A stretch of 64,000 nucleotides of DNA from Nitrosopumilus sp. (GTDB taxonomy: Archaea > Thermoproteota > Nitrososphaeria > Nitrososphaerales > Nitrosopumilaceae). The notes below the pieces were generated by a model. That model was not told the origin of the DNA. It did no database searches and saw only the letters and a list, made by a program, of their open reading frames with translations. Position numbers and translations under genes: made by a program. The stretch lies in contig CBDBLX010000002.1 of the NCBI GenBank assembly GCA_965207445.1, positions 512,001 through 576,000 on the forward strand, given 5' to 3'. Below are positions 8,901 to 55,465 of the stretch, piece after piece (position 1 is the stretch's first letter; each line of letters begins with the position of its first letter).

Positions 8901-9150
8901 TAGTAGTAGTAGTAGTGGCAGTGATGTCAGGTACATATTGGCACTCAAAGAGCAAGACGGTTGGGTGTATTTTACTACCAATGAATGGCTCAAGGCCTTG
9001 ACACTTGGGGAGAGATATTATCTTTATGTGATACGCGGTGTGATGCAAGAGCCACTCGTACTATCTGATCCTGCTCATGTATTGCGATCTGAACGACGAG
9101 GTACTACATACTGTGTAAGTGTAGACCGTATACTATCGTCATTATCATAA
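5995..9150 (+). CDS. SNF2-family helicase with C-terminal DUF3883 (NO VEIN-like) domain
   Basis: LPHQIEAV, AHDPGAGKT, DEAH, LTATPHKG, ATEAAGEGINLQ, YDLPWNPNRLEQRMGRIHRYGQ; C-terminal GYDIRS...FTTNEW...YYLYVI. Confidence 0.88.
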   Translation: MALKPPNKQLANKAFLALESHRLKHAFSFDPLLSMRVSNVDSLPHQIEAVYEHVLKKHRIRFMLAHDPGAGKTIMAGLILKDLKMRNIVKRVLVVVPGQLREQWKWELKNRFDLDFDIVTRDTFTQKGRTGVWEDDLLVTSIDFAKRDDVLKSLRDARFDLVIVDEAHKMSAYSYGRTTSKTKRYHLGEALSLSSKHMLFLTATPHKGDAQNFRLLLDLLEPGFFSAAGMIEDSVREGFNPVFLRRAKEDMVDFDGAPLFVPREVRTPDVRLSKHEKTLYTAMSKYVTEQYNLATRSVKSHNITFALIILQRRFASSIYALTKSLKRRMDKLEQIERAAEKVSFDDISDDYVEKVDEMSEKERWEEEQKWELITAAQNMDELRAEIDIIADLIQKAQKVIGSEAKLFQLKEMLENLDKTNPNEKILIFTESKDTLDYLTEHVRSWGYSVNNIHGSMGGTERKEAENIFKNDTRIMVATEAAGEGINLQFCRLMINYDLPWNPNRLEQRMGRIHRYGQKLDVNIFNLVIADTREGEILIRLFEKLEHIRSVMGNDKIFDVISDIVPGKSLAQLMLDATVKSKGQKKIISELDTIMGDTEAVKEQMQDNFTSRRMDDKSLKMLQATVRENSLVPEYSKNLFCDIVDTAGGNVKSGDDYEGLTTNITVPKLLLSDDHDSSKDITAVFDAYAHEQIPNTDLVTFGHVMFDAALEWAMSQFTSSAMDGKTTVLDPTGRLDGNIAFYTGSVVYGITGEQVSSHMIACIVDLKAGTAKCIPSSVILDLDWNYDKKTDDDFMDSEGIEYVQKMATDAVNTQLDSYASAIADEGRIQANMAQKYGLHSLDALLDGIESDIMQLLEKKRRGVKADLAIYNKRQDRIKYRTARRNMEERIKSDTNLTVDNIKCVGMIRVMPGTFAQSAKKLSAVEFAIEFEHARGRTPVNMSHEWNGYDIRSAPMDSGGGSNSGSSGNNRSSSSSGSDVRYILALKEQDGWVYFTTNEWLKALTLGERYYLYVIRGVMQEPLVLSDPAHVLRSERRGTTYCVSVDRILSSLS

Positions 9151-9222
9151 GTACAAGCGCTCAGGCCAAGTTGCCATTATGGCTGTGTAAGTGTAGACCG
9201 TATACTATCGCCATTATCATAA
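9111..9222. repeat. 40 bp direct repeat (1 mismatch) flanking a unique 32 bp insert
   Basis: CTGTGTAAGTGTAGACCGTATACTATCGYCATTATCATAA at 9111-9150 and 9183-9222. Confidence 0.95.
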
Positions 9223-16481: not shown

Positions 16482-17869
16482 CGCCTACCAAAGTCGACAA
16501 AGTCTACAAAGTCGACAACATTGTGGACTCCCGCGCCCGACGCCTGCCAAAGTCTACAAAGTCTACAAAGTCTACAAAGTCTACAAAGTCTACAACATTG
16601 TGGACTCCCGCGCCCGACGCCTGCCAAAGTCTACAAAGTCTACAAAGTCTACAAAGTCTACAAAGTCGACAAAGTCGACAACATTGTGGACTCCCGCGCC
16701 CGACGCCTGCCAAAGTCTACAAAGTCTACAAAGTCTACAAAGTCTACAAAGTCTACAACATTGTGGACTCCCGCGCCCGACGCCTGCCAAAGTCTACAAA
16801 GTCTACAAAGTCTACAAAGTCTACAAAGTCTACAAAGTCGACAACATTGTGGACTCCCGCGCCCGACGCCTGCCAAAGTCTACAAAGCCTCTACAAAGTC
16901 TACAAAGTCCCGCGCCCGACGCCTGCCAAAGTCTAACATTGTCGACAAAGTCTACAAAGTCTACAAAGTCGACAAAGTCTACAAAGTCGACAACATTGTG
17001 GACTCCCGCGCCCGACGCCTGCCAAAGTCTACAAAGTCTACAAAGTCTACAAAGTCGACAAAGTCTACAAAGTGGACTCCCGCGCCCGACAACATTCTAC
17101 AAAGTCTACTCGACAACATTGTGGACTCCCGCGCCCGACGCCTGTCTACAAAGTACAAAGGCGACGCTACAAAGCCAAAGTCTACAAAGTCTACAAAGTC
17201 TACAAAGTCTACAAAGTCTACAAAGTCGACAACATTGTGGACTCCCGCGCCCGACGCCTGCCAAAGTCTACAAAGTCTACAAAGTCTACAAAGTCTACAA
17301 AGTCTACAGTCAAGTCTACACATTGTGGACTCCCGCGCCCGACGCCTGCCAAAGTCTACAACATTGTGGACTCCCGCGCCCGACGCCTGCCAAAGTCTAC
17401 AAAGTCTACAAAGTCGACAAAGTCTACAAAGTCGACAACATTGTGGACTCCCGCGCCCGACGCCTGCCAAAGTCAAAGTCTACAAAGTCTACAAAGTCGA
17501 CAACATTGTGGACTCCCGCGCCCGACGCCTGCCAAAGGCCAAAGTCTACAAAGTCTACAAAGTCTACAAAGTCGACAAAGTCGACAACAAAGTCTACAAA
17601 GTCTACAAAGTCGACAAAACAACATTGTGGACTCCCGCGCCCGACGCCTGCCAAAGTCTACAAAGTCTACAAAGTCTACAAAGTCTACAAAGTCGACAAA
17701 GTCGACAACATTGTGGACTCCCGCGCCCGACGCCTGCCAAAGTCTACAACATTGTGGACTCCCGCGCCCGACGCCTGCCAAAGTCTACAAAGTCTACAAA
17801 GTCGACAAAGTCGACAAAGTCGACAACATTGTGGACTCCCGCGCCCGACGCCTGCCAAAGTCTACAAAG
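16482..17869. repeat. Two-level tandem array: ~16 copies of a constant ACATTGTGGACTCCCGCGCCCGACGCCTGCCAA unit separated by variable runs of AGTC(T/G)ACAA 9-mers
   Basis: Read directly from the sequence; two further partial units near 16907 and 17072. Confidence 0.97.
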
Positions 17870-24129: not shown

Positions 24130-24677
24130 GAAAGACTTACCTTGATTCCAACATTCTACTGGCCGTATCAGCAGGTCTGGAGAAAGAACCGGATCAGTTC
24201 AGAATGGCTACACGTGTGCTGGATGAGATTGGGAGCGGCGATGCGTTGGGGACCGTATCATCATTGGCGCTGATGGAGGTCATAACAGTAATGCGTGTAA
24301 AAAAAGGCAGGGAAACACATCGTTTGGGTTCTATGCCTGACGATCAGCAGTCTGAGTTTGTGTTACGCGAAAGCAGAACAATGTACGGCAAGCTAATTGC
24401 AGAGCTTATGAGGCTGCCTGGTCTAAAGTTTGAACATGGACAAAATATGGGTGTGGGTACTGTCATGAAAAATGCCCTGAACACAATCCATGAAACTGGG
24501 GGGCATGTAAGATCTAGTGGAAAGTCACGATTCAGTGGCGTGGGCACGGTTGATGTGCTTCATGCGTTGTTGGCACAAAACATGGACTGTAATGAATTGG
24601 TAACTTTTGACAAGGGTTTTGATGAGATGGCCAGAATTGCCGCGTTTGAAGGCTTGACGTTCCGAATCCTAAATTGA
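24123..24677 (+). CDS. PIN-domain (VapC-like) toxin
   Basis: YLDSNILL, SSLALMEV, DVLHALLA, LVTFDKGF. Confidence 0.85.
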   Translation: MVRKTYLDSNILLAVSAGLEKEPDQFRMATRVLDEIGSGDALGTVSSLALMEVITVMRVKKGRETHRLGSMPDDQQSEFVLRESRTMYGKLIAELMRLPGLKFEHGQNMGVGTVMKNALNTIHETGGHVRSSGKSRFSGVGTVDVLHALLAQNMDCNELVTFDKGFDEMARIAAFEGLTFRILN

Positions 24678-24758
24678 GGATGTGCTGGACGTCACATTGA
24701 AATTACTCCTCCCCCCTACATCTTGACGTTCCGAATCCTAAATTGAGGATGTGTTGGA
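24653..24758. repeat. 37 bp direct repeat (1 mismatch) flanking a unique 32 bp insert
   Basis: CTTGACGTTCCGAATCCTAAATTGAGGATGTGYTGGA at 24653-24689 and 24722-24758. Confidence 0.95.
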
Positions 24759-24877: not shown

Positions 24878-27721
24878 TCATCTGGTCCTGCATTTTTTGC
24901 ACCATGATTGCGGCCTGATCAGCCCGTCCATGTTACGAAACCCGAACAATTTTTCAACTTCCTGCCTTGTGCGCGCCGCTTTGCCGCATCTGGGGCATCT
25001 TGCATCCTCGTTTGCAGATGTGTCTGACTTGGAATGCTTTGCAATTATTGCACGGACATCTGAAGGATGAAACGCAACATCCCACATCCATGTTCCGTAT
25101 CTACCATCTTTGTTCACGACATCAATCCATTCTTCCAAATACCTGCGCTTTTCCTTGTTCTGTGTACTGTCCACGCCCTTTATCTCCAGAACCAGCATTA
25201 TGTTGTTTCTGAGTCTTATCAGGAAATCCGGGTAATAATCATGTATGATGCCATTGAACAAGTATTTTATCACAAACCCCAAGTGATCGTTCTTGGTCCA
25301 CGACGTAACATTTCTGTTGCGTTCTAGCTCCTGCCCGGCGCCCATCTCCCATGTGGAATCGTATACTGCCATGTTGATGTGGGACTTTGTAGTGTACTCG
25401 GTGGGTTTCTTTGTGTGCCATGGCCTCATATCCGATGTGGATTTAACGGGCTTGGAGTTGAACACAATGTTCCTCTTTGTGACGTTCGAGTCCTTGATGG
25501 CCTTACACACGTGCGATACGACCTTTGACATGTTAAACAGAATGGTCATCCTTGTACGCAGATCGTCTCCTGATACGTCAGTGACCTTGATCTTGCCGGA
25601 ATGGACAAACTCCTCGACCAGTTTTACTACCTGCGCCAGTAGGTACTCTCTGCCTCCGCTCCAATCGGGCGACATACTGTCGTACACATCCTTTGCGGCG
25701 ACAAAGATCACGCGTTGCAGCCTTATCTTCCCGTCTAGATCGTGCAGGTCTATCTCTGACATTTTGTCTACGTGGGGTTTGCCCGCTAAGATCTGGGCCA
25801 TTCCTGCAGTGGTGCTGGTGCCGTCACTCCTCAGGTTGAGCGTGTGGATGTTTTTCCAATTTACACTGAGTCTTGGTAAGAGTTCCATGTCTATTCTGTC
25901 TATGTGGGGCCAGGATATCATGTGCTCTGCCTTGTCTACATCCGGCTCGATTAGAGTCGTGGCTGCATCCGGTGGGGGTGGTGGACCATTCCCTCCCTCG
26001 TGAGGCAGGAACGTGAACGGCACCCCAAACACATTGACATACTCTGGAGAGAACAAGCCTGTGTCACAGCTTGTTTCATAAGACGTTCTTCGAAGCCCGC
26101 GTCCGACCACCTGCTCGCACAGCAGCTGGCTACTAAACGCCCTCAGGCCCATGATGTGGGTGACGTTCCTGGCATCCCAGCCCTCGGAGAGCATCTGCAC
26201 CGCGACAATGTTTCTTATCTGCTCCCCGGGCTTGCCTGTCTTGCCTACTGTGTCAACAATACTCCTGAGGTATTCCTCACTACCGGTTCCCGTGGCATCC
26301 TTTTCTTCTGCTTTGTTGATAGTGGTGGAATCGATGTGTAGTAGGTGCTCTTTCACGGCGAGCTCGGCCATCTCGAACCTGTCGTTTTCAAACGAGTGCA
26401 TTACTCGGGCGGCAGTCTCCGTCCTGTTGCAGACCGTTATCATGACGGGTGGTATTCTTGAGCCGCTCTTGCCCCATCGCTTTTTTGTCGCCGCCCAGTC
26501 ATGGCCTAGCAGCATGTATGCATTTACTACCAGATCCGGCAGCTTTTCATGGGGTTTGGCATTCCTGTTCAGATCGGGCTTTACCTCCTCGTCCCTGTAC
26601 AGGTGGTAAAACCTGGATTTGTAGTCTTTTGTGAACCTGTTGCTGTCGTCACGTATGACCACTCTCGGAGTCTTTGTCAGGCCGGATTCTATGGCATCGT
26701 TGAGCGAAAAGTCTGACACTATCCATTCAAACAGCGTGTCCTCCGTCACGTTCTTTCCCGTCGGGATGAACGGGGTGGCCGAAAAGTCAAAACATCTCAT
26801 GATGCCTCGGGCATCGTGTATTCTGTCGAGGCCCTCGATCCAGCGTCTGTCACGCTCGATCTCTCTTTTTGAGATTCCCTTTGCTTGTTCGGCATCTGCC
26901 CTGTACGCGTGATGGGCCTCGTCATTTATTACCACTATATTGGAATGATCATGTTCAAGAATCCGCTTTGAAAAGACTGTATTGCTTTCTGCCCCTCGCT
27001 TCACAACGCTTCTGGGCGCGTCTGTTTCGGGCATCAAAGTATGCCAGTTGTGTATCGTGATTCTACCCAGAAATAGTTTCTGGTGATATCCCTCGGGCAC
27101 TATCTCAAACTGATCGTACATGCTGTCACTGCTTGATGGTAGCAGTACCTGCAGCCTCGACTTTACTGTCAGCCCGGGAGCCATGACAAGTATGTTCTTT
27201 GAGAATCTAGAGTCCTGCGGATATGTGGTCTTGTTTATTATCTGCCACACAATCAGCATCGCCATTACTATCGTCTTGCCGGTTCCGGTCGCCATCTTGC
27301 AGCACAGCCGCTGAAACTCCCCGCCGTCTGACGGGATGTCGATCCCACGTCTTTCTGACTCGTGCGCCTCGACCAGCCAGATGAGCGTCTCTATCGCCTC
27401 CAACTGGCAGAAGAATAACCGGTTCTCGCGCTTTGTGGCATCATGCCAAAACTCCAAGAGATTTCTTGTCACTCCTGTGACGTTGGGATATCCTTTCTCT
27501 CTCCATGCATCCACCCTGTCACGTATCCTGTTGACCAGCTCGAGTTCCCGAAATTCCCCCGGATCATCAAATGACTTACTGTCTTCGGTGGCCATGAGAA
27601 AGCCCGCGGGTCTGCGTCCATCAACGAGCTCGAATCTTCTCCGTGCGCGGTCATACCTATAATGCCCGGTGGGCATTTGGTACGGGTTGCAAATTATAAG
27701 ATTCTCGATTTGGGTAGTCAT
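24878..27721 (-). CDS. res: Type III restriction endonuclease Res subunit with C-terminal zinc ribbon
   Basis: LFFCQLEAIET, KMATGTGKT, NDEAHH, MLSEGWDA, EQVVGRGLRR, YYPDFLI..LEIKG nuclease motif. Confidence 0.92.
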   Translation of the reverse strand: MTTQIENLIICNPYQMPTGHYRYDRARRRFELVDGRRPAGFLMATEDSKSFDDPGEFRELELVNRIRDRVDAWREKGYPNVTGVTRNLLEFWHDATKRENRLFFCQLEAIETLIWLVEAHESERRGIDIPSDGGEFQRLCCKMATGTGKTIVMAMLIVWQIINKTTYPQDSRFSKNILVMAPGLTVKSRLQVLLPSSSDSMYDQFEIVPEGYHQKLFLGRITIHNWHTLMPETDAPRSVVKRGAESNTVFSKRILEHDHSNIVVINDEAHHAYRADAEQAKGISKREIERDRRWIEGLDRIHDARGIMRCFDFSATPFIPTGKNVTEDTLFEWIVSDFSLNDAIESGLTKTPRVVIRDDSNRFTKDYKSRFYHLYRDEEVKPDLNRNAKPHEKLPDLVVNAYMLLGHDWAATKKRWGKSGSRIPPVMITVCNRTETAARVMHSFENDRFEMAELAVKEHLLHIDSTTINKAEEKDATGTGSEEYLRSIVDTVGKTGKPGEQIRNIVAVQMLSEGWDARNVTHIMGLRAFSSQLLCEQVVGRGLRRTSYETSCDTGLFSPEYVNVFGVPFTFLPHEGGNGPPPPPDAATTLIEPDVDKAEHMISWPHIDRIDMELLPRLSVNWKNIHTLNLRSDGTSTTAGMAQILAGKPHVDKMSEIDLHDLDGKIRLQRVIFVAAKDVYDSMSPDWSGGREYLLAQVVKLVEEFVHSGKIKVTDVSGDDLRTRMTILFNMSKVVSHVCKAIKDSNVTKRNIVFNSKPVKSTSDMRPWHTKKPTEYTTKSHINMAVYDSTWEMGAGQELERNRNVTSWTKNDHLGFVIKYLFNGIIHDYYPDFLIRLRNNIMLVLEIKGVDSTQNKEKRRYLEEWIDVVNKDGRYGTWMWDVAFHPSDVRAIIAKHSKSDTSANEDARCPRCGKAARTRQEVEKLFGFRNMDGLIRPQSWCKKCRTR

Positions 27722-30231
27722 TGTTCCAGCGGTATGATTTTCAGGGATTCGATTCCACGATCGTCGATTATCTTTACTGCCGCCTGCTTGTTTTGACCTG
27801 CTTCAAACGGGATTGATTTCGTGCCTTGGTATTTTACAATTAATTCTTCGTCAATATGAGCTTGTAAAGTCTTTGCTAATTTAGTCCATCCACCTATTTC
27901 TTCTTTCAATGGGAAAAACACTTGTTGTGGATATATGCTTCTACCGTCATAATCTTCATCTAACATCCACATCGCAATATTTGATACATTGCCCGATTTT
28001 ATTTGTCCGTCTCTTGTGTCGTAATAATCGAACCCTTTTACTGCAACGACATATTTTTTATTTTTTATTTTTTCTAGCTTGACATCTGGCTGACCCATTA
28101 GCCAAAATGATTCGTTACTAGCACGTTTTCTTTTCAAATCCTTTGTTAGAAGATCTTTGTTTATTTCAGCCTTTAATATTGTAGTTTCTGGCCACTTTAA
28201 TTCATCAATATCTTTTGAAGCTTCCGGATCAAATTGCATAGCTACAAATATTATAATTTCAGGTTTTGGAACTAATTTCTGAGCTTCATTTATTGCATTT
28301 TCGACTTGTCTTGACTCTAATGGCGCATACTCTGGCCCAAACGAAATCATTACTCTTTTGGGATTTTTTTCTTTTGTTTCTGCATCTGCATGCAGCCATT
28401 TTGTGGCAGGATGAGACTCAACTTTTACAAATTCTATTTTTTGGTTATTTTTGCCTCGAATTCCAGTTTTAAATAATTCTTCTCTCCATTGCTGTTGATG
28501 TGAATCTGCTTTTTTTACCAACTTACTTTCTTTAGATTCTCTTGTAAGCACATCTATTGATTTAACGGTAGGTGCTGGAACAGCTTCTACAGTAAACGGC
28601 CCTGAGATCCTTATTAGATTTTTTTGTGCTACTGGCGCATCGTATAATATTTCTTCATTAATTGGTTCATTATTAGCCAAGGCTCCAAGAGTAATGTGAG
28701 GAACTGTCGCATACTTAAATCCTGATTTAACTCCCTCTTGTGGTTGGTTTAATTTATAATACTCAAACCTTGAGGTCATTAATCGTTGTTTTGCCAAGTA
28801 TATTGCAACTCTAGATGTGTCACACGTGATCCATCTCCTACCTTGCTGCTCTGCAACGAATGCTGTAGTTCCGGATCCACATGTAGGATCAAAAACCAGA
28901 TCTCCTGGTTCTGTAGTCATGAGTATACATCGTTGAATGGTCCCTGTTGCTGTTTGAACCGCATAAATTTTATTGGATACTAAAGCCATTTCATTCCATA
29001 AATTATCAACTTCTGCGAAAGGGAAGTCATCGTAATATTTGACAAATCGTAATGTATTTCCTGTTGGAATCACTCTGTTTTTTTCCACTAGTGACATCAT
29101 GCCTTTTTCATTTGTCACCCAACTTCTTCCTCCTGCACTGTATGGCGCTTGATATTTTTTGCCTCTGTATGTTACTTCAAAATCTGCCCCTTTATTGACT
29201 CCTGCAGGAGCAAGCTTATATGACGTAAAAACCCTTACATTTTTTGGAAGTTTATGTAAGCCTTGTAATTCCTCACTTGTTAATTTTCTCCTTGTCCCAT
29301 TTGCCTCTTCAACAAAATTCCATGTCCCACTTTCAAGTTCTTTTTTCTTAAACAACCTATTAAACGTCATTACCTTCTTGTTTTTTGCATACCAGATTAA
29401 ATAATCAGACACCGATCCGATAAATTTTGACCCCAATGGATTCATTTTTCTTCTGAACGTGATGACGCTGACAAAATTCTTGACACCAAAGATTTCGTCT
29501 AACAATTCCCTTACGTGGTGTATATTCTCATCAGAAATTTGAACAAAAATACTTCCTTTTTGACCAAGCAATTGTTTTGATAATATTAACCTGTCACGCA
29601 AATATGATAAATATGAATGAATTCCTAATTCCCATGTATCTCTATATGCTTTAATAGTTTCTGGCTCTTGAGTTAAATCCGCATCAACCCCATCTGCAAC
29701 ATTTTTTTTATTTACGAATGGCTGAAAATTGGAACCATATTTAATTCCGTATGGAGGATCCATGTAAATCATTTGTACCTTTTCCGTCATATTCTCTTTT
29801 TCTAATAATGAGTTCATGACAAGTAATGAATCTCCTGCAATAAGTCGATTTGACCAATTCTGATCGTGCTTATAAAATTCTATTGCATTTCTTAATGGTG
29901 GGTTGTTCTCTGGCAAATCAAAAAAATTGAATATGGTTTTCTGTTGATATTGTTCCGTTTTCATGACTTTCTCTAAAATAGTATGTGGATCAATTCTTTC
30001 ATGTACGTGCAATGAAACTGTATCAACTCTTAATTCCGTTTTTTCATTTTTTGTAGACCATATTAGTTGTGGATCAAGTCGCGGATCATGCGTATATTTT
30101 TTCCTTGATTTATCTGGATCGGTTTTTGATGTGACTAGGCCTGCATGAGGATTATTCGTTCTCTTAGATTCTCTGTGTGTGTACTGCTCTACGGACTCTT
30201 GCCTCTTTGTCCTTTTTTTCATGCTTGTCAT
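27718..30231 (-). CDS. mod: Type III R-M DNA methyltransferase Mod subunit
   Basis: NRLIAGDSL, IYMDPPYG (motif IV), VFDPTCGSGTTA (motif I); 4 bp overlap with res. Confidence 0.92.
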   Translation of the reverse strand: MTSMKKRTKRQESVEQYTHRESKRTNNPHAGLVTSKTDPDKSRKKYTHDPRLDPQLIWSTKNEKTELRVDTVSLHVHERIDPHTILEKVMKTEQYQQKTIFNFFDLPENNPPLRNAIEFYKHDQNWSNRLIAGDSLLVMNSLLEKENMTEKVQMIYMDPPYGIKYGSNFQPFVNKKNVADGVDADLTQEPETIKAYRDTWELGIHSYLSYLRDRLILSKQLLGQKGSIFVQISDENIHHVRELLDEIFGVKNFVSVITFRRKMNPLGSKFIGSVSDYLIWYAKNKKVMTFNRLFKKKELESGTWNFVEEANGTRRKLTSEELQGLHKLPKNVRVFTSYKLAPAGVNKGADFEVTYRGKKYQAPYSAGGRSWVTNEKGMMSLVEKNRVIPTGNTLRFVKYYDDFPFAEVDNLWNEMALVSNKIYAVQTATGTIQRCILMTTEPGDLVFDPTCGSGTTAFVAEQQGRRWITCDTSRVAIYLAKQRLMTSRFEYYKLNQPQEGVKSGFKYATVPHITLGALANNEPINEEILYDAPVAQKNLIRISGPFTVEAVPAPTVKSIDVLTRESKESKLVKKADSHQQQWREELFKTGIRGKNNQKIEFVKVESHPATKWLHADAETKEKNPKRVMISFGPEYAPLESRQVENAINEAQKLVPKPEIIIFVAMQFDPEASKDIDELKWPETTILKAEINKDLLTKDLKRKRASNESFWLMGQPDVKLEKIKNKKYVVAVKGFDYYDTRDGQIKSGNVSNIAMWMLDEDYDGRSIYPQQVFFPLKEEIGGWTKLAKTLQAHIDEELIVKYQGTKSIPFEAGQNKQAAVKIIDDRGIESLKIIPLEQ

Positions 30232-30344: not shown

Positions 30345-30614
30345 ATGAATGCGATACATCCGAACCTAGGCTATGTTATGGCCGGCAAATATCGGAAGAT
30401 CGTATTATTCACTCTGAAGACTGGTGCGTTATCTCCAACAGAGATCACTAAGAAAACAGGCCACTACCAAAGTCGAATAAGCGAAGCCTTGATTGATCTT
30501 GCCTCCAGAGACTTGGTTGTGTGCGTGAACCCTGATGCCCGAAAAGGTAAGTTGTATTGCCTTACATCAGATGGTGAGAAAGTCTGCTCTCAACTTGCTT
30601 GTCGTGACGCGTAA
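30345..30614 (+). CDS. Winged-helix transcriptional regulator, divergent from mod
   Basis: RKIVLFTL..LSPTEITKKTG..SRISEALIDL..LVVCVNPDARKGKLYCLT. Confidence 0.8.
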   Translation: MNAIHPNLGYVMAGKYRKIVLFTLKTGALSPTEITKKTGHYQSRISEALIDLASRDLVVCVNPDARKGKLYCLTSDGEKVCSQLACRDA

Positions 30615-30782
30615 GATTCATGACAACCTCGATTCTTTTGCTGTAGATGCATACTGATCTAGTAATAAACTGATCTAGCAATAAATTGATCTTTTTAAGA
30701 CGTATCAGCGTGTATTCTTGTCCCTCTTTCTCTGACATGTATTTGACGCGTTCCTGATAACCGTTCAACCACCGCACTTGCA

Positions 30783-30892
30783 TACTGATATGATTAAAGA
30801 TCCGATATTTTGATTGATATGCATCTCGAAGTTGAGCACATATTATGAATACGAAATATTAGAAAACTATCGGATCTTTAATGAAACTATTA
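30783..30892. repeat. ~110 bp repeat with 15 bp terminal inverted repeats (MITE-like), copy 1
   Basis: ATTAAAGATCCGATA...TATCGGATCTTTAAT (30793-30882); near-identical copy at 31315-31424. Confidence 0.85.
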
Positions 30893-31295
30893 TGCACCAG
30901 AAGTTAGACGATGAATCTGTGCCTAAATTTGAGAAGGGATTGAACGGTTCCGCGGCAAAGTATACCACTAACAAGGGTATACTGCCGGAGATCCTGCTAA
31001 GGGATATGCGCGACGCATTCACGCGCTCCGAGGACCTGTTGGATCTGGAGATGTTTGATGATGCCACCGCCGATCCAACGCTTGACCTCCAGAACAACCT
31101 AACTGACTTGGTCAGTGAAGCGACTAATACGGGTGGTCTGCGTCTTATGACAGGGCGAGCCAGAACAACCTAACTGACTTGGTCAGTGAAGCGACGCCAG
31201 AGCAGCTCGGCTCTATACTAGAGATCCTTCAGAAACTAGGGATCGGCAACACACAGAGACGCACAGGCTGCGTACCGTTTTACATCATGACCTAG
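30892..31295 (+). pseudogene. Hypothetical gene frameshifted by a 71 bp insertion
   Basis: Removing 31125-31195 gives a continuous frame ...LQNNLTDLVSEATPEQLGSILEILQKLGIGNT...*. Confidence 0.6.
31089..31195. repeat. 36 bp perfect direct repeat flanking a unique 35 bp insert
   Basis: CCAGAACAACCTAACTGACTTGGTCAGTGAAGCGAC at 31089-31124 and 31160-31195. Confidence 0.97.
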
Positions 31296-31314
31296 ACCGG
31301 TACTTGGTAGCGGG

Positions 31315-31424
31315 TACTGATATGATTAAAGATCCGATATTTTGATTGATACTCATCTCGAAGTTGAGCACATATTATGAATACAAAATATTAGAAAACT
31401 ATCGGATCTTTAATGAAATTATTA
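31315..31424. repeat. ~110 bp MITE-like repeat, copy 2
   Basis: About 4 mismatches to 30783-30892. Confidence 0.85.
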
Positions 31425-31785
31425 CGGGCTTTCGGTTTGTTACCATTCTGTCTGAGGATGTGGTGATGGTCGAGGGGACATGCGCACGCAGCAACAACTG
31501 CTGTAATGATGACGTTGGTGGCGATGCCAAAACGCAACGCGGTCCGAACCCTGTAGATGGTGGACCGGAAGGTATCCAAGTCCACAGTGGGTTCAGAACC
31601 TTCAACACTAGACGACAAAGTGAATCGGGGCGCTTACTATTCCTCCTTTTTCAACTCAAAGTCACCCCTGGGCGTCAATGATAATTAGGTGCACAAAACC
31701 TCTGACGTTAAGAGGGAAAATACAAAACCCTGAATGTTGTGAATGCATATCTTCATTAGTAGAACTTCATCATTGGGTTGGGACA

Positions 31786-53719: not shown

Positions 53720-55465
53720 ATGTATCGCACTATATTCATAATTAGTGTCATTGTACTTGTATCATTTGTTGTTATACATGAAATCCCTGTGTCTTTTGCA
53801 CAGGTGATCGATTATCCTGATCTTGGAGTTAGAGTAGAGACTGTTGCAGATAATCTCAAAGTACCATGGAGCATAGATTGGTTATCAGATGATATCATGA
53901 TAATTACTGAGAGGGGTGGAACCCTTTATGTTCTTAAAAGTGAAAATGATAGATTTCCAATATTGTCACTTGACGTTCAGGGCGGTGAAGGGGGACTACT
54001 TGGTGTTGCAGTGGATCCAGATTTTGAGGTAAATTCGTATATCTACATATATTACACATATGGTGATCTCTTTTCTCTTTACAACAAGGTTGTTCGTTAT
54101 CAATACGATGATTCAGACGATACCATAGTGCTATCAAATGTGCATACGGTAATTGACAAGATACCTGGAAGCTCTTTTCATGATGGGGGGCGCATTCAAT
54201 TTGGCCCTGATGGTATGTTGTATGTTGCAACTGGTGACGCAGGAAACCCCGATCTCTCCCAAGATGTAAACTCGCTTGCAGGAAAAATATTACGAATCAA
54301 CTCTGATGGTTCAATACCTGATGATAATCCTTGGGAAGACTCACCTGTATACTCTATGGGACATCGTAACCCTCAGGGCATGGATTGGACTAGTGATGGT
54401 ATTATGATCATAACTGAGCACGGGCCGTCGGGATGGGTTGGTACGGGACATGATGAGATAAACGTAATTAAACCTGGCAAAAACTATGGTTGGCCATACG
54501 TGATAGGCGACAAAGCGGTTACTGACACTGACATCAATGTGTACCAAGATCCTTTGTTTCATACTGGATATGAGACTTGGGCCCCATCTGGTTCTGAGTT
54601 TTATGAATCAAATGAAATTCCAGAATGGCATAACAAATACTTTGTGGCCAGTTTACGTGGGCAGAGTTTGTGGATGCTAGACATTGTTTCTAATGATACA
54701 CTGTCAGTAAAATCATCTACTGCATTATTTTCAAATGAATTTGGTAGACTACGTGATGTTCAGACTGGCCCTGATGGGTACTTGTATGTGCTGACTAGCA
54801 ATCAAGATGGTCGTGGTGTACCTAAATTGGCAGATGATAAGATATTTCGCATTGTACCATTGTATGATTCTGTCATTTTAGATGATATGATGGCAACAAC
54901 AAATACCAAACAACAAAAACTTACGACATTTTCATATGATGGTAATGAGACTGCTAGTACGGGACCACTTTATGCATCAGTCAGACATCCTGGATATGAT
55001 GTACATGATTTTTCATTTAACATTACACAAAAAAGTATGGCGTTTGAGTTTGCTTTACAATCAAATACTCTAGTGAATGAATCTCTTTCTTCAGATGAGC
55101 GGCTTAAGAAGTATGAAGAAAGTATGTTACAATCAAATACTCTAGTGAATGAATCTCTTTCTTTGTATATCCAAAAACCTCTCTTATCTCCTCCATTTGA
55201 GATAATAATATATGATGATTTTGGAAATTTATCTTATGATAATAATGTGGATGTAAAATATAATCAAGATAATTACATCGTTGTGTTTGATCCAAGAATT
55301 GAAAGTGGACGTATTATGATAATTGGAACTCATGTTATACCTGAATACGAATATGTCATGGTTATAATGTTTATATCTACTATTATACTATTTAGTAGTG
55401 TATTGTTATACCGAAGATTTGGTTTTGGATTATTTTACAATGTTTATGTACAACATATGAAATAA
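53720..55465 (+). CDS. PQQ-dependent glucose/sorbosone dehydrogenase-family protein with PEFG-CTERM-like anchor
   Basis: GEGGLLGVAVDPDF, HDGGRIQFGPDG, GHRNPQG, GRLRDV; C-terminal VIPEY plus TM helix. Confidence 0.88.
   Translation: MYRTIFIISVIVLVSFVVIHEIPVSFAQVIDYPDLGVRVETVADNLKVPWSIDWLSDDIMIITERGGTLYVLKSENDRFPILSLDVQGGEGGLLGVAVDPDFEVNSYIYIYYTYGDLFSLYNKVVRYQYDDSDDTIVLSNVHTVIDKIPGSSFHDGGRIQFGPDGMLYVATGDAGNPDLSQDVNSLAGKILRINSDGSIPDDNPWEDSPVYSMGHRNPQGMDWTSDGIMIITEHGPSGWVGTGHDEINVIKPGKNYGWPYVIGDKAVTDTDINVYQDPLFHTGYETWAPSGSEFYESNEIPEWHNKYFVASLRGQSLWMLDIVSNDTLSVKSSTALFSNEFGRLRDVQTGPDGYLYVLTSNQDGRGVPKLADDKIFRIVPLYDSVILDDMMATTNTKQQKLTTFSYDGNETASTGPLYASVRHPGYDVHDFSFNITQKSMAFEFALQSNTLVNESLSSDERLKKYEESMLQSNTLVNESLSLYIQKPLLSPPFEIIIYDDFGNLSYDNNVDVKYNQDNYIVVFDPRIESGRIMIIGTHVIPEYEYVMVIMFISTIILFSSVLLYRRFGFGLFYNVYVQHMK
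55055..55163. repeat. 37 bp perfect direct repeat flanking a unique 35 bp insert (in frame, +24 aa)
   Basis: TTACAATCAAATACTCTAGTGAATGAATCTCTTTCTT at 55055-55091 and 55127-55163. Confidence 0.97.

Follow-up and report, generated by a model that had tools for sequence, protein, structure and literature searches.

When the type I-E Cas1-Cas2 of Escherichia coli is over-expressed, spacers of the CRISPR system are also integrated off-target, and such events can spawn 'neo-CRISPR' arrays (Nivala 2018, via bioRxiv 10.1101/148544, PMC7054753, in the accessible part of the text). The first of these citing sources also mentions 'circumstantial evidence' in two other species (Nivala 2018, via bioRxiv 10.1101/148544). 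In vitro, Cas1-Cas2 of Pyrococcus furiosus performs full-site integration at non-CRISPR plasmid sites that are spaced by the length of a repeat, as described in the available sections of PMC6698737. For a type I-G Cas4/1-Cas2 assayed in vitro, 80-90% of the leader-side but only 60-70% of the spacer-side integrations occur at the correct site, and the complex is self-sufficient for prespacer trimming (PMC10504553, available sections). Here we describe a natural locus of comparable geometry in Nitrosopumilus sp. (assembly GCA_965207445.1, contig CBDBLX010000002.1, called C2 in genomic coordinates), within a stretch of 64,000 nucleotides (positions 512,001 to 576,000 of the contig) that is referred to as the window. 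At this locus, 71 extra bases interrupt a remnant of an integrase-family gene. We interpret them, with a probability of about 0.85, as the scar of an off-target full-site spacer integration by the native type I-G Cas4/Cas1-Cas2, that is, as a 'neo-CRISPR' unit.

The locus resembles the E. coli type I-E events in having a spacer-sized insert within a repeat-sized chromosomal duplication outside the array. The E. coli events, as far as the accessible text goes, arose in laboratory cultures that over-expressed Cas1-Cas2 (Nivala, Shipman & Church 2018), whereas the present one is fixed in a natural archaeal genome. The Nitrosopumilus scars further differ in that they are associated with a type I-G Cas4/Cas1 fusion and a 36-nt ruler, amount to ~45 per genome and recur in congeners; in contrast to the E. 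coli neo-CRISPR arrays, none of them has gained a second spacer. The paired opposite-strand attacks at repeat-length distance that we propose are analogous to those reported for P. furiosus (PMC6698737, available sections). The enzyme belongs to the same family as that of PMC10504553, a Cas4g/Cas1g fusion acting with Cas2; that study used a plasmid with the cognate leader and repeat, and the term 'off-target' has 0 occurrences in the part of its text that was available.

The duplicated target and its insert

A repeat search of the window revealed two 100%-identical 36-nt direct copies of CCAGAACAACCTAACTGACTTGGTCAGTGAAGCGAC, with a start-to-start distance of 71 nt, on either side of the 35-nt insert TAATACGGGTGGTCTGCGTCTTATGACAGGGCGAG. 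The copies are bordered by unlike bases on either side, which limits the duplication to exactly 36 nt and leaves an insert of 35 nt, in agreement with an earlier reading of the sequence alone (the sequence-only reading), which had proposed a 35-bp insert between perfect 36-bp copies. The features that make up the scar are the following.

31089..31124, unstranded: duplicated target, copy 1, which encodes QNNLTDLVSEAT of the integrase remnant
31125..31159, unstranded: spacer-sized 35-nt insert, no source found; unique in the genome and with no counterpart in homologs
31160..31195, unstranded: duplicated target, copy 2, from which the downstream frame ...SEATPEQLGSILEILQKLG... resumes
30953..31295, plus strand: C-terminal remnant of an integrase-family gene, the DNA that was hit, which aligns with the C-terminal ~95 residues of homologs of 426-480 aa

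With up to 3 mismatches allowed, the 36-mer is found only as the two locus copies, both in the window (0.00 expected in 100 shuffles) and in the 2.6-Mb genome, and the 35-nt insert has a single occurrence in the genome. The insert has a GC content of 54%, which is reached by 9% of random genomic 35-mers and is not unusual.

Read without repair, the frame that starts at the ATG at 30892 continues into NTGGLRLMTGRARTT and ends at a stop at 31173, and is followed by a 38-codon frame. Joining 30892-31124 to 31196-31295, which removes 71 nt, yields one open frame (...DLVSEATPEQLGSILEILQKLG...), as had been predicted for the removal of the insert and one copy. A tblastn search of the read-through product against its own genome shows paralogs that cross the junction unbroken, e.g., C2:643313-643573 with 50% identity over 90 residues, and four other in-genome paralogs span the junction with ..ATPEQLG/ATSEQLD... 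The search for uninterrupted homologs of the repaired protein gave the same picture: when the two pieces from the window are aligned with eight homologs from databases and two paralogs from the genome itself, 10 out of 10 homologs are unbroken through ..xATPEQLGxxLExL.., and NTGGLRLMTGRA, the NTGGLRLM... peptide, is present in none. The 71 nt thus represent an insertion and not a deletion in the relatives, which is the polarity that the sequence-only reading had assigned. The duplicated segment is pre-existing target DNA that occurs once in the unhit homologs (10 of 10 aligned).

The full-length paralog has 426 residues and 1840 database homologs at E <= 1e-5, for a few of which NCBI gives the name 'site-specific integrase', in records of Nitrosopumilus, Nitrososphaera and 'Thaumarchaeota'. 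Because no Pfam, PHROG or PDB sequence match was found for the 426-aa paralog, the 'integrase' label derives from these source names only, and no curated model or solved structure places the protein among the tyrosine-recombinase-type integrases. What we take, from our own reading of the sequence, to be a GH...Y-like motif lies near the C-terminus of the protein.

The genome contains a single large CRISPR array, at C2:68.6-79.6 kb, ~465 kb upstream of the locus on the same contig, and this array comprises 122 repeats of 36 nt. The spacers, 120 in number, range from 35 to 39 nt (52 of 37 nt, 36 of 36 nt, 19 of 38 nt, 10 of 35 nt and 3 of 39 nt). Type I-G Cas7g/Csb1, Csb2, Cas3g and a Cas3-extension protein are encoded on one side of the array. 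Cas2 and a full-length Cas4g/Cas1g fusion (731.5 bits at a cut-off of 560; profile positions 1-546 of 546) are encoded on the other side and transcribed in the direction of the array. The array was oriented by the direction of these genes and by the repeat, which on that strand ends in ...ATTGAAGS, an ending that we presume to be informative of orientation. The fusion is the sole Cas1 homolog of the genome, and no casposase is present. A ~2.2-kb insertion whose ends are inverted (C2:74670-76830), probably an insertion sequence located within a repeat, separates 83 repeats of the array from the other 39.

At 36 + 35 nt, the locus has the size of one native CRISPR unit. A CRISPR-type origin fits because the duplication equals the native repeat in length and the insert falls within the native spacer range. 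We propose that Cas4/Cas1-Cas2, carrying a processed prespacer of ~35 nt, would have attacked both strands of ordinary chromosomal DNA 36 bp apart, the distance that the ruler of the complex would usually measure across a CRISPR repeat. Gap repair would then have duplicated the 36-bp target on either side of the new 'spacer', giving a repeat-spacer-repeat arrangement.

The sequence-only reading had also stated that the event frameshifts a gene. The disruption of the frame stands, whereas an intact gene does not: the target was already a remnant, corresponding to the last ~91 codons (the 71 inserted nt discounted) of a ~430-codon gene in the homolog alignment, and its apparent start codon lies in a repeat element. 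The frameshift therefore cost nothing at this truncated site, flanked by copies of a repeat that resembles miniature inverted-repeat transposable elements (MITEs), and the scar persisted. The repeat elements at the locus are these.

30893..30952, unstranded: right-hand ~60 nt of an ~85-nt inverted-repeat MITE-like element, which provides the apparent ATG and the first 19 codons
30783..30892, unstranded: upstream copy of a 110-nt MITE-like repeat of family D1, in which there is an internal inverted repeat
31315..31424, unstranded: downstream copy of the 110-nt MITE-like repeat, with 96% identity to the upstream one

The ~85-nt element has ~140 genomic copies (a coverage profile gives 130-146 hits along one full copy, with inverted ends), the ends being GGTAACCGTTCAACCC.., and the first 57 nt of the apparent open reading frame (ORF) accordingly have many genomic copies. 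The 110-nt repeat, which flanks the integrase fragment on both sides, is present in ~65 near-full-length copies of 93-100% identity. The two MITE-like families meet at the locus, apparently through insertion of one element into the other. The impression of a mobile island is strengthened by an 837-aa minus-strand ORF (27718-30231), whose translation we read as that of a restriction-modification DNA methyltransferase. Farther upstream, at 16489-17867, lies a satellite of 9-nt CAAAGTCTA/CAAAGTCGA repeats interspersed with a ~41-nt GC-rich unit (ACAACATTGTGGACTCCCGCGCCCGACGCCTGC); it displays CRISPR-like periodicities of 65-86 nt, but its 'spacers' are identical.

The density of MITE-like repeats raises the question of whether the scar is the footprint or target-site duplication of a transposon, insertion sequence or casposon. 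The insert lacks terminal inverted repeats, shares no sequence with the other inserts described below and is unique in the genome, which holds neither a second Cas1 nor a casposase. A duplication of 36 bp, moreover, far exceeds the target-site duplications of known insertion sequences, and casposons produce 14-15 bp. We consider an origin of this kind highly improbable.

The same surroundings (the integrase remnant, the MITE-like repeats and a candidate type III restriction-modification methylase), together with the 6-bp hairpin in the repeat, would agree with a stand-alone mini-CRISPR array that is borne by a mobile element, relies on a Cas system in trans and lies in the integrase frame only incidentally. 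Stand-alone arrays on integrated elements are described in Thaumarchaeota, and the locus shares with them a CRISPR-like unit that lies away from the cas genes in mobile-element DNA (PMC6563490, accessible part). Those arrays, however, have many spacers and repeats identical or close to those of the cas-linked host array (PMC6563490, accessible part). The present unit has one spacer, and its 'repeat', with 8-10 of 36 bases in common with the only cas-linked repeat of the genome, is integrase coding sequence that is single in all ten aligned homologs. No further occurrence of the 36-mer was found in the genome, nor any exact one in the scanned collections, Rfam has no family that matches it, and ~45 other loci of the same geometry each have their own 'repeat'. 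A mobile mini-array is thus very unlikely.

Recurrence of the scar in the genome and the genus

The whole genome was surveyed for direct repeats in two copies, each 24 nt or longer (seed 12, X-drop extension, spacing 30-200, no other repeat nearby). Among the 119 isolated pairs obtained, 54 have a period of 69-74 nt with a peak at 72 (n = 21), where 2.4 are expected from the other periods (Poisson P ~6e-53); the remaining 65 form a thin scatter, mostly at multiples of three. Nine of the 55 pairs with a period of 68-76 were set aside (six short-period tandem arrays, two second copies in duplicated DNA and one MITE pair), which leaves ~46 events, C2:2225150 being a doubtful one among these. The candidate at C2:55916 corresponds to two adjacent MITE copies and was rejected as an event.

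In the clean events, duplication lengths centre on 36-37 nt. Between the copies there are 0-4 mismatches, implying that the events are of different ages, and one event family consists of four diverged copies of a single event in a repeated element. The inserts are all different: 49 of them have no shared sequence except for copies of the same event. The locus in the integrase remnant is the cleanest of the ~45 natural scars in the genome, and its two copies, being still identical, suggest that it is recent. Outside the native array, no locus in the genome has grown to two different spacers, and the only chains found belong to a satellite repeat. Given a duplicate that is unrelated to the native repeat and the lack of a second spacer, the locus is most likely a non-functional single-unit 'neo-CRISPR'. 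The window holds 4 events against 1.1 expected (p = 0.03), including the following sister events.

55055..55163, unstranded: 37-nt duplication with a 35-nt insert, period 72, in frame in the GSDH-family ORF 53720-55465
9111..9222, unstranded: ~40-nt duplication, 1 mismatch, period 72, 32-nt insert that resembles C2:406803-406834
24653..24758, unstranded: 37-nt duplication, 1 mismatch, period 69, 32-nt insert

Elsewhere in the genome, a second remnant of this integrase family contains the scar at C2:2374093 (37-nt duplication, period 73). At C2:1135897 and C2:1463861, two independent scars whose inserts differ occupy two copies of the ~85-nt element, in the same orientation and 3 nt apart. The sequence at these sites (..TTTAGG|CAC|AGATTCACC..) is loosely like the native leader-repeat junction (..TATAGG|ATTTCCGC..), and this position of the element may be a hot spot.

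One might suspect a chimeric read, a mis-joined repeat or some other error of sequencing or assembly in a genome that is reported with 5.47% contamination and 2 contigs. Such an error would not reproduce the native CRISPR geometry. In addition, sister copies with 1-4 mismatches have aged in place, one event is present in the four diverged copies of a repeated element, and like scars are found in independently assembled relatives, so that an artefact has hardly any probability.

Of 60 congeners with a completeness of at least 95%, 34 possess Cas1. Relatives were scanned with the same pipeline over the first 400 kb of each genome (800 kb for G010), and non-tandem pairs with a period of 69-75 were counted.

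G332, Cas4/Cas1 fusion, 400 kb: 5 pairs
G009, Cas4/Cas1 fusion and a second Cas1, 400 kb: 6-7 pairs
G351, Cas4/Cas1 fusion, 400 kb: 0 pairs
G010, no Cas1, 800 kb: 1 pair
G108, no Cas1, 400 kb: 0 pairs

In the three genomes with a Cas4/Cas1 fusion, which share the I-G system, the array repeat is homologous and 36 nt long, and the periods are 71-76. The scar density is ~9/Mb in the sampled Cas4/Cas1 genomes against ~0.8/Mb in the Cas1-less ones (0-1 in 1.2 Mb). The association of scars with Cas1 across these five genomes, which are kin and not independent, is suggestive. In G351, we also observed a 60-repeat array (733300-737587; sampled part C1:1-400000) and 22 isolated pairs at other periods.

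A repair or replication process that is independent of Cas1, i.e., slippage or a microhomology-mediated tandem duplication with captured filler DNA, can make short duplications with inserted filler, and it would agree with the Cas4/Cas1 relative that has 0 events in its sample, with the candidate in a Cas1-less relative and with a Cas1 dependence that is only inferred here. Such a process would not yield the sharp peak at 69-74 nt that matches the native CRISPR unit, and it accounts poorly for the difference in density between the genomes with Cas4/Cas1 and those devoid of Cas1. The locus insert is not templated nearby, and sister inserts come from sites hundreds of kilobases off. On balance, repair without Cas1 is improbable, and off-target integration by the native Cas4/Cas1-Cas2 is preferred.

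Target choice, insert origin and reading frames

The sequence-only reading had suggested that the target was chosen by its similarity to a CRISPR repeat. The alignment of the 36-mer to the CRISPR repeat of the genome does not support this: in register, identities amount to 8/36 on the plus and 10/36 on the minus strand, no better than random 36-mers (10.4 +/- 2.2), and the target agrees with the native leader end at 3 of 20 positions. Over 30 clean targets, the mean is 11.17/36 repeat identities against 10.40 for random sequences, so that they are barely repeat-like, in contrast to the P. furiosus off-target sites, for which the accessible text describes positionally conserved repeat bases (PMC6698737). 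A Rfam search of 30600-31600 gave no family that matches the unit, and three sub-threshold hits elsewhere in that stretch.

The predicted hairpin ACTGAC-TTG-GTCAGT followed by GAAGC is present in the target. As DNA it folds with -4.1 kcal/mol, a stability that 7.2% of random 36-mers from the genome equal or surpass; among the 30 sister targets, hairpins are not enriched (mean -1.62 against -1.59 kcal/mol for random sequences, p = 0.66). The proposed likeness to the 3' end of a CRISPR repeat holds in part, since CAGTGAAGC resembles the native ...CATTGAAGS; however, the match ends 3 nt inside the boundary and is absent as a trend in the 30 targets, only one of which (this locus) has TGAAG near an end. 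The resemblance may be due to chance. A logo of the 60 attack-site ends displays a weak T at +2 (26/60), an A at +6 (31/60) and an A at +7 (26/60). We conclude that the ruler defines the product, and that the choice of the target is nearly independent of sequence. The available portions of the cited sources do not treat likeness of the target to the repeat or leader as a strict requirement of the mechanism.

Six of the ~46 sister inserts match distant sites of the same chromosome nearly end to end, with unrelated flanks and 32/33, 33/35, 34/38, 35/35, 35/36 and 28/32 identities. The insert of the 9111 event is 28/32 identical to C2:406803-406834, its flanks being unrelated, and that of C2:2374093 is 35/36 identical to C2:1108489-1108524. 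One source lies in the window, ~500 nt from the locus: positions 30544-30576, within a small winged-helix ORF (30345-30614), are 32/33 identical to the insert of C2:293216, an event 250 kb away that is in frame in a 683-aa ORF. By contrast, none of the 120 native spacers has a self match of this kind, only three partial hits of 17-22 nt being found (6/~46 against 0/120, Fisher p = 0.00035). The retention of self-derived inserts in the ectopic units only is expected if the prespacers captured there are unused for interference and hence not purged. The ectopic inserts have no meaningful match in the DNA or arrays of the relatives.

The period is divisible by three, and therefore in frame, in 24 of 49 events, compared with 39 of 120 native units (p = 0.02). 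In nine of the 24 in-frame events, an ORF of at least 150 aa is open through the scar. The measure is noisy: open spans of that length also surround 4 of the 25 out-of-frame events. The event at 55055-55163 is in frame in a 581-aa ORF of the glucose/sorbosone-dehydrogenase family (Pfam GSDH), to which it adds LQSNTLVNESLS and SDERLKKYEESM. The ortholog in the relative G322 (53% identity over 562 residues) has a gap of 25 residues exactly at the duplicated-plus-inserted segment, which we read as an empty site and an independent confirmation of the polarity. In the hit ORFs that could be named, the scars are found outside the mapped Pfam domains, after them or at or beside the N-terminal end, as listed here.

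Ribonucleotide reductase: after the barrel domain, near the C-terminus
Cysteinyl-tRNA synthetase, PEP-utilising enzyme and AAA ATPase: at the 5' edge of the open frames, upstream of the mapped domains
2'-5' RNA-ligase-like protein: after the domain
CAP-domain protein: before the CAP domain

In-frame scars of 24 codons are thus found in intact genes, those of ribonucleotide reductase and the GSDH-family protein, with another at the 5' edge of the cysteinyl-tRNA synthetase frame. These positions fit a random insertion that is filtered by selection. Two candidate knock-outs, C2:111042 and C2:1036499, in genes of 514 aa and 935 aa, were rejected; the scars lie at the extreme 5' ends, and frames of 506 aa and 935 aa are open.

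Strength of the interpretation and its significance

The polarity of the insertion, its geometry, the single complete Cas1 and the recurrence across genome and genus are observed, whereas the enzyme, the staggered attack and the absence of function are deduced. Several observations weigh against off-target integration by the native Cas4/Cas1-Cas2. The target is unlike the native repeat or leader. The period of the ectopic units peaks at 72 and that of the native array at 73, a shift that the selection filter may explain. The open-frame measure of that filter is noisy. The dependence of the scars on Cas1 is one that we infer, and G351, which has the Cas4/Cas1 fusion, yielded 0 pairs. The empty site of this locus was not recovered: the 36-mer has no exact match in the metagenome and genome collections, and the 422-nt locus has no DNA match in 40 relatives. 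The locus insert found no source in its own genome, no exact match in IMG/VR, metagenome contigs or species-representative genomes, no GenBank phage match by blastn, and no match with up to 3 mismatches in 300 genomes of the order. The six self protospacers have no shared adjacent motif, which is odd for a Cas4-guided capture, and the 436 native spacers of four genomes have no match of at least 26 nt in ~5.1 Mb outside their own arrays, and yielded no native protospacer adjacent motif (PAM).

The kind of event is known. A literature search, with subscription journals largely outside its scope, found laboratory and in vitro off-target integration and no natural genome-wide case. What is noteworthy is how abundant the scars are in nature, that they recur in congeners, that some inserts derive from self DNA, and that intact genes have received in-frame insertions. 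The natural frequency and the cost of off-target spacer integration are hardly documented, and the scars provide a direct read-out of the 36-bp ruler of the integrase and reveal a target specificity that is very weak. What the enzyme captures when there is no selection through interference is seen in the 6 of ~46 inserts of self origin compared with 0 of 120 native spacers. The scars also show which insertions are tolerated, as 72-nt in-frame events, situated between domains and at the ends of genes, are over-represented. 'Neo-CRISPR' loci of a single unit arise readily and are never extended in this genome, and CRISPR adaptation can add segments of 24 residues to proteins.

Extended to the genus, these data make it reasonably probable that type I-G Cas4/Cas1-Cas2 acts as a chronic insertional mutagen of low specificity. 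Each carrier genome would gather dozens of fixed scars composed of a 36-bp duplication and a ~36-nt insert, some of them in-frame additions of 24 codons, and the inserts would constitute an unfiltered record of prespacer capture that includes self DNA. If this is true, the scars would be the first record, natural and on the scale of a genome, of what CRISPR adaptation costs and of the raw material for new arrays.

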